Below are positions 29,637-33,839 of a DNA stretch of 64,000 bases, in pieces. Source of the DNA: Nitrososphaerales archaeon. Its GTDB lineage: Archaea > Thermoproteota > Nitrososphaeria > Nitrososphaerales > UBA213. Both the position numbers and the translations under genes were made by a program. Location of the stretch: assembly GCA_965197925.1 (NCBI GenBank), contig CBDAOC010000020.1:288001-352000 (forward strand), given 5' to 3'. The notes beneath the pieces were generated by a model. That model was not told the DNA's origin. It was given only the letters and a program-made list of their open reading frames with translations, and ran no database searches. Every line of letters starts with the position of its first letter. The first letter of the stretch is position 1.

Positions 29637-30918
29637 TTACTCTTCCTCTTCTTTACTTCCTTCTCGCAATTCCCTATCAATCTGTTCCTTCAATGAGATG
29701 TATCTCCTGAATTTCATATCCCATGCGGCGAAGAACAATCGTTCTTTGAACCCTATGTATAGCCAGATTGATGCAAGGATAACTGAAACTATGGTAAATA
29801 GAAGGATTAGTCCGATGTCAGGGTGTCTATGCAGGAGGAAACCCAGAAACCTGGGATGTCCTGCAACTACCGCTGCCATAATCAAAGCTATCGGAGCAAG
29901 GATGAATGAAGATATTATAAGTCATCCCAATACTCTCCAATACATCATAATCGACGAAATGATAACAAATGCCAGATAGTTTTGTGCATTCTTCTCATAT
30001 CTGATCCTGGTTCTGTGGAACCCATTCTTCAACCAGGCAAAGAATCTCTCCACAACATAGCGCGTCTTGCCGTATAGGTATTGTTCTGTATTATCATTTT
30101 GTTGTTGTGTCTTACTGTTTTTTCTGTAAGGTATGCGGCCAGGGATTTTTCTTTTGGTGAGGTATTTCCTGATGAATTCTGCATCATAGCCCTTGTCTGC
30201 TTGGCACCGCGCAATTTTTCTGATAGATCTCTCATCCAGATATTGTGAGATGCCATCCATCACGTCTACAAATCTTGCAGAGTCATGCTGATTTGCAGGA
30301 CCCATCACTACTGAGACTGGCAGTCCGTTTTGTTCCACCGCAACGTGTATTTTTGTGCCTGAAATCCTGTTGAATCCGTTGTATCCTATGACGCTTCCCC
30401 TTTTTTGGCCGGAACTGATGACGAATCGACTGATATTTTTTGCAGCTGCATCTTGCCTGATCTGTGGGCTGATTTGACTGCAGCGGAGAGGATATTCTTC
30501 CATATTCCACGTCGCTGCCAGTTCTGCAGTCTGCGGTGCGCAGTTGATTTGGAGCCGTACCTTTGTGACATCCCAGTCCACCTGCATCCTGTTATCCCGA
30601 CAAACAGGATTCCGTTGACTGTCTTTCTGTCGTCTGCCCTTGGCCTTCCGGTTCTGGCTGGCTTGGGGAGATGCGGTGATATCATCTTCCATTGTTCACC
30701 TGTTATCTCCTGAAATTTCATGATCTGCTACGGGCAGCATTGCAAATAGATCCAAATGATCGTCAATTATTCACTAAATGATCAGTTTTGGGATCAGTTG
30801 GTAATGAAAACATATTCTTGGTTGTATTCATATGGAAAATAAGTTAGTCGAGCACTTCCAATATACCTTCACGTTTTTCCTTGTCATTTGATGAAGGTTG
30901 ATCCTTAGATTCCGACAT
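29637..30918 (-). pseudogene. Small membrane protein gene interrupted by IS5 element A, with an in-frame stop
   Basis: MSESKDQ...REGILEVLD*LIFHMNTTKNMFSL resumes as IISSFILAPIALIMAAVV... beyond the IS. Confidence 0.65.
29918..30800 (-). mobile_element. Complete IS5-family element A; orfA 30386..30721 and orfB joined by a -1 programmed frameshift
   Basis: orfA ends ISVDSSSVPAKKG at slippery AAAAAAGGGG (~30397-30406); orfB has GTKIH, ADKGYD, VERFFAWLK; imperfect IRs AAGTCATCCCAAA / TTTGGGATCAGTT. Confidence 0.92.
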
Positions 30919-32210: not shown

Positions 32211-33420
32211 CTAGATGAAAGTTGACTGATTGTCTAACTTGTAAGATGGATTTCGATCTTCTGCTTGAAGAGCTGACATCTTTGAAGCGAGAAGTGTCGA
32301 GTATACGAAGTTCACTCGACTCTCTACAGACTCTAATTTTCTCTTCATCTCCTCAAATTGGGTCTGCCAATTCTTCTCAGCCACAGCAAACTCATGCTTC
32401 ACATGCTCAACCTCAGAAATTTGTAACAGAGGAACAGCCTTAAGGTAGTCCTTGAAAAGTTCGTGTTCATTTGGTTTATAATATGAATTACTTACACCAA
32501 CCGAGTGACCCATTAGCAGTTCTACGTTTATCGGGCGCATCACTTGCTCTGCCCGAGTCTTGAAGAACTTTCTGAAACCATGGTTAGCTTTAAATTCATG
32601 CCTTTTCTGCCCTAGTTCTAACGATCTTCTAATTCCTTGGGCCCATAATGCTCTTTCAACCAACCTTTTGATTCCAGTACTCATTAGCTTCCTTGGATTC
32701 ATTGCAAGTCCATGATGTGTATATTCTGCATGCCATAAATCACGCATAACCCAAGAATCTTTTGTTATTCTTTCTCCACACTCTTCACGGTAATCCATCC
32801 ATTCTTTTATTGCCTTGTACGCATCGGGAGTAATGAAAGTGATATACTCTTCGGCATCCTCACCATAAACAATTATTTTACCAACTTGAGTAATTCCATT
32901 TTCAACCACAGGTGCAATATGCCTCCACTTCAGATAATCCCATGCTCCCAATCGAATGCCAGACGATGCCATCAAGTACACAATAGGTTTTATTCTTCTG
33001 TCTGGATATCCGGTAAGTTTTCTGATTTCTTCACCTGTTGGTGCTCTATCGTTGGATGCCCTTCTCTCCTTAGGCAGACCTTTAGAAATCTTCTTCCAAC
33101 TCAACAGTATATCATACATTTCACAGAACAGTTTTATTGGTTTGTAATAGTTCGGCACTTGATTCTGAAATTTCATTTCTATCGGCACGTTCTTTCTGAT
33201 AAGAAATGAATCTCATTACGGAATAGAAAGCCCAATTTGTATCATCCCTTCCTTTTACTGTAAATTTGTTTAGCTTTTTCCACAAGAGTTCCGTTCAATC
33301 CAATGAAGTCAAAAAACATTTCAAGGCGGCGCTTGTACTTTACTTTAGTCTGCTCACTCTTAATAGCATACAGGAACATTGCAAGAGGTTCTGAAACTGT
33401 TATTGCTAATTTTGCACACC
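32211..33420 (-). pseudogene. int: Tyrosine recombinase/integrase; N-terminus (33190-33420) out of frame
   Basis: SSGIRLG, HGFRKFFKT, LMGH and SYY catalytic residues; upstream frame reads MFLYAIKSEQTKVKYKRRLEMFFDF. Confidence 0.9.
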
Positions 33421-33461: not shown

Positions 33462-33563
33462 TGGACCGGGTGGGATTCGAACCCACGACCTCTCCCATGC
33501 CGAGGGAGTGTCCTACCAGGCTGGACGATTAGACAATCGATAATAACTATCGACTTCCGGCCC
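33462..33563 (-). tRNA. tRNA-Ala(GGC) with a 28-nt insertion/intron (33529-33556) between positions 7 and 8; CCA not encoded
   Basis: Acceptor stem GGGCCGG/CCGGTCC with G3:U70 and A73; D stem GTCC/GGAC; anticodon stem CTCCC/GGGAG; T arm GTGGG-TTCGAAT-CCCAC; 74 nt after removing the insertion. Confidence 0.9.
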
Positions 33564-33839
33564 GTCATTCCGATCCAATTCTAAGCCATATTGGTATGCT
33601 TTATAATGTTTGTCTATATTTCCTGTCCATTGATTCCATCATACTCGTTCAATCAAATGACTGAATGTAACAATTACAATTTTATTATTCATCAAGAAAT
33701 GGAGTTTTCTTCTGATGTTGTAATGGTAAGCTTTGGGCATTTTTCATTCCTTGCATTTTCCGATTGTCCGATACTATAATATCCCATTGTAGGAAATAAT
33801 AACAATGTTGGAATTTGATTATTTATTTCATCTATAGCG

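Follow-up and report, generated by a model that had tools for sequence, protein, structure and literature searches.

An intron that interrupts a tRNA between nucleotides 7 and 8 separates the 5' strand of the acceptor stem from the rest of the molecule. How can such a precursor be folded, cut, and matured? This question is raised by a tRNA-Ala(GGC) gene in a stretch of 64,000 nucleotides from a Nitrososphaerales archaeon, which is called the window in the following (Table 1). We regard it as very likely that the intron is spliced. The most distinctive part of the locus is a second strand in the leader, here called the decoy, which is complementary to the 3' strand of the acceptor stem and probably assists splicing by EndA ahead of RNase P.

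Table 1. Features of the tRNA-Ala(GGC) gene and its leader in the window
Feature	Positions	Strand	Remarks
Exon 1 (tRNA nucleotides 1-7, acceptor 5' strand with G3)	33557..33563	-	7 nt; same as the 5' end of the intronless orthologues; register test
Intron at position 7/8	33529..33556	-	28 nt; hairpin, 3' strand of the central helix, and 3' bulge
Exon 2 (U8 to discriminator A73)	33462..33528	-	67 nt; anticodon GGC; C33; CCA not encoded
Leader nucleotides -3 to -1 (GAC), forming the 5' strand of the outer helix in the BHB	33564..33566	-	pair with nucleotides 10-12
Leader decoy strand (T-GGATCGG), predicted 5' end of the transcript	33570..33577	-	pairs with nucleotides 66-73
TATA-like box	33599..33606	-	first T 30 nt before the decoy

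Identification of the intron and the splicing motif

Joined to each other, the two exons give a tRNA-Ala(GGC) of 74 nt that is split between G7 and U8, as a sequence-only reading of the locus had proposed. Thirteen registers were tried for an excision of 28 nt, and only the cut after nucleotide 7 results in a U8, an intact acceptor stem, and three of the four pairs of the central helix. In addition, the 15 intronless Ala(GGC) orthologues can be read directly across exactly this junction. A placement at 12/13, made possible by the repeated GTC, was rejected, as it yields an A8 and only one of the four central pairs. A split, trans-spliced tRNA was rejected because both exons are contiguous behind a single TATA-like box, and a permuted tRNA because the order is co-linear and the upstream 7-mer resembles the 5' strand and not the 3' half.

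The product of splicing was expected to be an entirely normal tRNA. This is true for its length, U8, and the acceptor stem, but not for nucleotide 33 (33502, minus strand), which is a C in this gene and a U in 44 of the 45 Ala(GGC) genes compared. C33 could be a real variant, an editing substrate, or an assembly error. C13, C25, and A26 also differ from the relatives of the same family, and C13 and C25 change G-U pairs of the D-stem into G-C pairs. C33 would fit a copy that has decayed or is left unspliced while another tRNA reads the GCU and GCC codons, as would the mismatch in the central helix, the cost of 9.0 kcal/mol for forming the splicing motif, and a recombinase-like ORF 270 nt downstream. 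However, such a decay is highly improbable. The gene is the sole Ala(GGC) gene in the 2.9-Mb assembly, which is 98.7% complete and has no uninterrupted second copy elsewhere. The same C/U or C/C mismatch is frequent in relatives of the same family, the D-stem changes replace G-U by G-C, and both promoter and decoy are intact.

The BHB motif could be re-derived from the minus-strand sequence with the helices and the two 3-nt bulges that had been described. Its outer helix comprises 4 bp between nucleotides -3 to +1 and nucleotides 9-12. Nucleotides 2-5 provide the 5' side of the central helix, in which three of four positions pair, one of them as G-U, and one is a C/U mismatch. Nucleotides 6-7 are located in the 5' bulge. 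The intron helix has at least 8 bp, nine contiguous pairs having been counted. The 45-nt BHB region folds with a z-score of -2.39, and 4 of 200 shuffled sequences were equally good. The strict form with all four central pairs is seen in 23 of 54 orthologues but not in the window gene, which has the relaxed form with three of four central pairs and flanking helices of 4 bp (h) and 9 bp (h'). Relaxed motifs without flanking helices are frequent by chance (bioRxiv 10.64898/2026.10.13.758758), and it is therefore conservation that carries weight for the BHB.

The genome encodes two genes with an EndA domain (PF01974) and an archaeal RNase P RNA, and it carries many further non-canonical tRNA introns. 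The EndA of Thaumarchaeota is described as being of the (alpha-beta)2 type (PMC4090602). EndA cuts the BHB after the second base of the bulge, and the (alpha-beta)2 type takes relaxed motifs and does not need the whole tRNA (PMC4090602, PMC3241643). The suspicion that standard scanners would miss or miscall such a gene proved justified. ARAGORN called no gene in the window at its default threshold and, at a relaxed threshold, took the tRNA-Ala gene for a Thr(GGT) with a 12-nt intron. The match of Rfam RF00005 to exon 2 (33526-33470) covers model positions 10-63 only.

Conservation in related genomes

De-duplication left 54 distinct Ala(GGC) genes with the 7/8 insert, almost all of them in records of the Nitrososphaerales type, and 15 that are intronless; the genes compared are kin and were chosen as best hits, and the counts are not independent. 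Seven of the eight genomes of the same family have the insert at the identical site, and the contig of the eighth starts within the last bases of the insert. A pattern blind to the leader found 30 loci in a collection of species genomes, 29 of them with the insert, and in metagenomes it found 37. The record titles of the species-genome loci include Nitrosocaldus, Nitrosothermus, Nitrosomirales, and marine Nitrososphaerales. One locus in a Woesearchaeota-titled record (L088) is very similar to a locus in a Thaumarchaeota-titled record (L069) and is probably misbinned. A loose pattern run over 401 genomes did not match more often than a reversed control, and its loci (L031-L060) were excluded from the counts. 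Also outside the counts are the truncated loci L006/L077 and L009, of which L006 nevertheless shows both intron and decoy, and two loci that were read by eye. The latter are a Ser(GGA) gene with an intron at 5/6 (L111) and a Ser(UGA) gene with a 13-nt intron at 8/9 (L118), and in both of them the acceptor strand is repeated exactly upstream.

Among the relatives the length of the intron varies from 10 to 57 nt and its sequence is freely variable. No more than one mismatch is present in the central helix of 29 of 30 and of 33 of 34 genes, and the relatives show covariation in the intron helix, the first columns of which have two-sided changes in four of four scored pairs. The proposal that leader bases take part in the outer helix is borne out by the comparison: at least 3 bp are present in 48 of the 54 intron-bearing versus 5 of the 15 intronless genes. 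The helix reaches this length in all 31 genes with an imperfect central helix and in 17 of the 23 with a perfect one, which supports a leader-built outer helix for genes like that of the window.

A second acceptor strand in the leader

The 7-mer at 33576-33570, which starts 13 bases upstream of +1, is complementary to nucleotides 66-72, and an extra U-A pair joins the leading T of the decoy to the discriminator, nucleotide 73. Other genes were scored by the best duplex that their 45 upstream nucleotides can form with the 3' acceptor strand, and a decoy was counted at -10 kcal/mol or below, a threshold that was chosen after the data had been seen. By this measure, and taken over five isotypes, 76 of the 83 genes interrupted at 7/8 to 10/11 have a decoy, versus 8 of the 70 without such introns; the numbers are 77/83 versus 11/70 at -9 and 68/83 versus 6/70 at -12. 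For the single isotypes, intron-bearing and intronless genes compare as 28/30 versus 1/15 for Ala, 23/23 versus 0/10 for Gln-UUG (10/11), 14/14 versus 5/12 for Gln-CUG (10/11), 7/7 versus 1/12 for Ser (7/8), and 4/9 versus 1/21 for Met-CAU (9/10), the Gln introns having been placed by isotype rules. Counted as units of isotype and family, 17 of 18 intron-bearing versus 4 of 33 intronless units have a decoy; this excludes the Met-CAU genes of family f8 (L205, L207, L210, L216, and L217), which would add one failing intron-bearing unit. Four of these five Met genes fail the threshold. All five leaders, however, pair strongly (-17 to -22 kcal/mol) with the 3' strand of the D-stem and the 5' strand of the anticodon stem, and are thus possibly decoys for a different displaced strand.

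The leaders of Ala and Gln genes pair best with the 3' strand of their own isotype (for Ala, -13.1 versus -5.8 to -6.6), while this swap control is weak for Ser (-9.7 with its own strand, -9.2 with that of Met) and for Met. Among metagenome genes that had not been seen before and were collected with the leader-blind pattern, 21 of 24 have a decoy, compared to a rate of 0.069 for shuffled leaders. The three failing genes have a weaker and more distant version of it, as in L030. Over 23 genes, 94% of the cells of the decoy helix are paired. Since there is hardly any variation in the acceptor strand of Ala genes, their decoy helix is conserved, with one-sided changes but none on both sides. Acceptor stem, decoy, and the central strand of the intron have changed together in three Gln genes that belong to family f14 (L150, L176, and L187).

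Within the genome of the window gene, leaders complementary to their own 3' acceptor strands also precede a Ser(GCU) gene with a 7/8 intron (L092, nucleotide +1 at G000:C19:514097) and the 10/11-interrupted genes for Gln(CUG) (L091, +1 at C19:495062) and Gln(UUG) (L094, +1 at C20:187699). The complementarity is weakest in a Met(CAU) gene with a 9/10 intron (L093, +1 at C19:563274).

The position of the decoy is related to the promoter. In 28 of the 30 intron-bearing Ala genes, the distance from the start of a TATA-like motif to the decoy is 25-30 nt, whereas the best 6-nt bin contains only 13 of the 30 when the genes are aligned on +1. The decoy thus keeps step with the TATA box despite a spacer of 5-32 nt, and because of this fixed distance it is probably the 5' end of the transcript. 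We infer that transcription starts at the decoy or just before it.

It could be imagined that the duplication or recombination through which the intron arrived left the upstream copy behind as a neutral scar. In Gln genes the decoy often is such a copy without any deviation, placed 1-2 nt upstream, and eight intronless genes pass the decoy threshold. One of the intronless genes, a Gln-CUG gene of family f9 (L181), retains an exact copy and looks like a precise intron loss with the decoy left behind. However, the Ala decoy still pairs although it deviates from exon 1 at positions 3-4, and it is conserved across families at a fixed distance from the TATA box while the spacer and the flanks diverge. 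The Ser decoy has shifted onto the discriminator and the trailer. In addition, four intronless Gln-CUG genes of family f19 (L180, L182, L186, and L190) have kept a decoy-like copy that is followed by a complementary stretch, which, judged by eye, could lock the copy in a hairpin. A mere scar is therefore very unlikely. Full or partial upstream copies were also seen in intronless Ala(GGC) genes of family f18 (L022/L079 and L021), with L022 having a near-perfect 13-nt tandem repeat.

The G3-U70 pair is the alanine identity determinant of the tRNA. Position 3 of the decoy is an A in 49 of the 50 Ala genes that were parsed (4 of the 54 were not), and this A3 strengthens its pairing. The decoy-closed form therefore does not contain G3-U70 and should not be alanylated. 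The same base bears on the idea that the real exon 1 is the upstream 7-mer, and that a longer or nested intron removes the spacer, nucleotides 1-7, and the 28-nt insert. Although the decoy-closed fold is the most stable one both before and after removal of the 28 nt, such a tRNA would have A3-U70 instead of G3-U70. Moreover, the intronless orthologues begin with the downstream 7-mer, and the intron's 3' end pairs with nucleotides 2-5 of the downstream copy and, as judged by eye, not with the decoy. This alternative is extremely unlikely.

Folding of the precursors

In the computed folds of the window precursor the decoy helix has a pair probability of 1.00. With their leaders, the genes have a median probability of 0.98 for the decoy helix and 0.00 for the true acceptor stem. 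If the leaders are taken away, the acceptor stem forms and the probability of the central helix is 0.00 in all 30 genes, in agreement with the earlier statement that the BHB and the acceptor stem are incompatible. The BHB is not the ground state of the window gene, its central helix having a probability of 0.00. The median cost of forcing the BHB in the Ala genes is 6.6 kcal/mol for the wild type, 8.1 with the decoy shuffled, and 13.1 without the leader. For 17 Gln-UUG genes the medians are 3.9, 5.6, and 8.4 kcal/mol, and the window gene has 9.0, 9.5, and 15.3 kcal/mol, respectively. The costs of 14 other automatically called introns of the genome, of which at least three look miscalled, range from 1.6 to 13.5. 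The BHB is cheaper with the leader than without in 30 of 30 Ala genes, and the decoy by itself makes it less costly in 27 of 30 Ala genes and in 16 of 17 Gln genes. The whole leader thus has a large effect in the model, and the decoy alone a modest one.

This modest effect would be expected if EndA needed only the leader GAC for the outer helix of a real intron, and the decoy were a timer or shield against RNase P at +1, or a protector of the 3' end until splicing, without a role in folding the BHB. Removing the whole leader costs about 6 kcal/mol, while shuffling the decoy costs 0.5 in the window gene and 1.5 in the medians. The A3 of the decoy, which should keep the decoy-closed form from being alanylated, fits this alternative as well, and pairing between leader and 3' end inhibits bacterial RNase P (PMC9433436). 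Nevertheless, it is unlikely that this is all the decoy does. It lowers the cost of the BHB in most of the genes, and the Gln genes with 10/11 introns, which have only 0-1 outer-helix pairs, carry a decoy in 37 of 37 cases. Shielding and promoting the BHB are not mutually exclusive.

After splicing, the decoy fold is still preferred. It beats the native acceptor stem by 8.0 kcal/mol in the window gene and by medians of 6.4 kcal/mol in Ala and 2.0 in Gln genes, and strand exchange thus needs energy from outside the model. RNA data were found for a Gln-UUG gene with a 10/11 intron of a relative (L136). Four transcriptome runs of one study each contain one contig, which has the genomic form over the whole stretch, without splice joint or loose end. 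These contigs are uninformative either way because contigs drop minor forms and may hold DNA.

Proposed order of processing

In the pathway that we consider probable, decoy-assisted splicing by EndA ahead of RNase P, the transcript would begin at or just before the decoy. Pairing of the decoy with nucleotides 66-73 would block the true acceptor stem and, according to the computed folds, place the RNase P site at +1 inside a helix. The freed nucleotides 2-7, the leader GAC, nucleotides 8-12, and the ends of the intron could then form the relaxed BHB, the anatomy of which is seen in the sequence and conserved. Following the established chemistry of BHB splicing, EndA would cut after G7 and before U8, and the exons would be ligated. 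Exon 1 would finally displace the decoy by strand exchange, driven by tertiary folding and by the irreversible cleavage by RNase P, which would take off the leader of 13-14 nt. This is the weakest step, since the energy would have to come from tertiary contacts, modifications, and RNase P. Because the decoy would hold nucleotides 66-73 while nucleotides 1-7 build the BHB, splicing should precede 5' maturation. The same order had been claimed in the sequence-only reading, and it would follow from the anatomy and from the folding of the precursors.

A broader reading has about an even chance of being correct. Archaeal pre-tRNAs with introns at 5/6 to 10/11 would carry a strand-exchange switch in cis at the start of the transcript, which replaces the displaced strand, namely that of the acceptor stem in Ala, Gln, and Ser and that of the D-stem and anticodon stem in the f8 Met genes. 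Such a switch would enforce splicing before RNase P, keep the intermediate uncharged, and let introns colonise the acceptor region. After intron loss it would be neutralised by an anti-decoy hairpin or would decay.

Neighbourhood of the gene

The gene had also been suggested to be an integrase target, and this could not be upheld. The tyrosine-recombinase-like ORF at 32211-33188 (minus strand, 325 aa) has no Pfam match and only a weak match to XerA (E = 0.001, 18.7 bits versus a cut-off of 220), although catalytic-type motifs can be recognised by eye. With tblastn it had no match at 30 other loci (3-kb windows, some shorter). A direct repeat of the tRNA 3' end was searched for and is missing in the window, and in the assembly only the T-arms of other tRNAs were matched. 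An att site was therefore rejected for want of a far-end repeat of the tRNA. Relatives of the recombinase-like ORF are present on contigs C1, C19, and C20, and a DDE transposase at 29922-30721 (minus strand) apparently extends across two overlapping frames. Contig C16 (150 kb) contains 28 intronless tRNA genes (G000:C16:24379-97254), of which the four inspected look different from the archaeal set and seem to have CCA encoded. The contig probably stems from a large virus or is contamination of the bin.

Comparison with known systems

Non-canonical introns, including some at position 3/4, are known from archaeal tRNAs (PMC4090602, citing Marck and Grosjean 2003 and Sugahara 2008). The BHB/HBh' introns of Thermoproteales, Thaumarchaeota, and Asgard archaea (PMC4090602) resemble the intron described here in being short, in the central helix of 4 bp with two 3-nt bulges, in the cut after the second bulge base, and with respect to the two EndA paralogues in the genome. 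They differ in that the excerpted text of PMC4090602 does not name 7/8 as a position, that the present motif uses up the acceptor 5' strand and leader bases, and that the 3' acceptor strand, left without its partner, pairs with a separate strand of the leader. Split and permuted tRNAs (PMC3218864, PMC4033280) are similar because part of what EndA recognises is built from leader or trailer sequence outside the exons, and in permuted tRNAs splicing also comes before end-processing. Unlike those, the present gene is a single co-linear gene with one transcript, its leader is off the splice junction and probably removed by RNase P, and the partner of the decoy is exon sequence at a distance of about 95 nt.

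The tRNA processing of Methanopyrus kandleri (PMC3695527) is another case of archaeal pre-tRNAs with leader and introns, there including an intron in the D-loop. However, their ends are trimmed before the introns are removed, while the anatomy found here predicts the reverse order. In bacteria, leader bases at the 3' end of the tRNA modulate 5' maturation (PMC9433436), but there two leader bases extend the acceptor stem, whereas here 7-8 bases replace its 5' strand and are linked to an intron. Neither the 7/8 position nor a leader decoy was found in the literature searched, for which "7/8" is unusable as a search term, and which included the available parts of PMC4090602, PMC3218864, PMC4033280, PMC4390854, PMC3695527, PMC3293823, PMC3241643, PMC5797428, PMC11291895, PMC8450103, PMC9433436, and bioRxiv 10.64898/2026.10.13.758758. 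The position may already be catalogued, for example in Supplementary Data 4 of PMC11291895 or in Supplementary Note 3 of the bioRxiv census. The decoy is more likely to be new than the position.

Implications

Introns of the 7/8 type explain tRNAs that are missing from annotations of these archaea, as illustrated by the ARAGORN results for the window gene. A genome paper on a Nitrosocaldus lists only 29 tRNA genes (PMC5797428). A second acceptor-like strand upstream of the gene can also mislead calls of the 5' end. If the proposed pathway is true, it would add a functional element to the leaders of pre-tRNAs, which are usually treated as disposable, and the order of processing would be opposite to that of Methanopyrus kandleri. 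It would also provide a rule for where tRNA introns persist, by which a central helix reaching into nucleotides 1-7 needs a partner in the leader.
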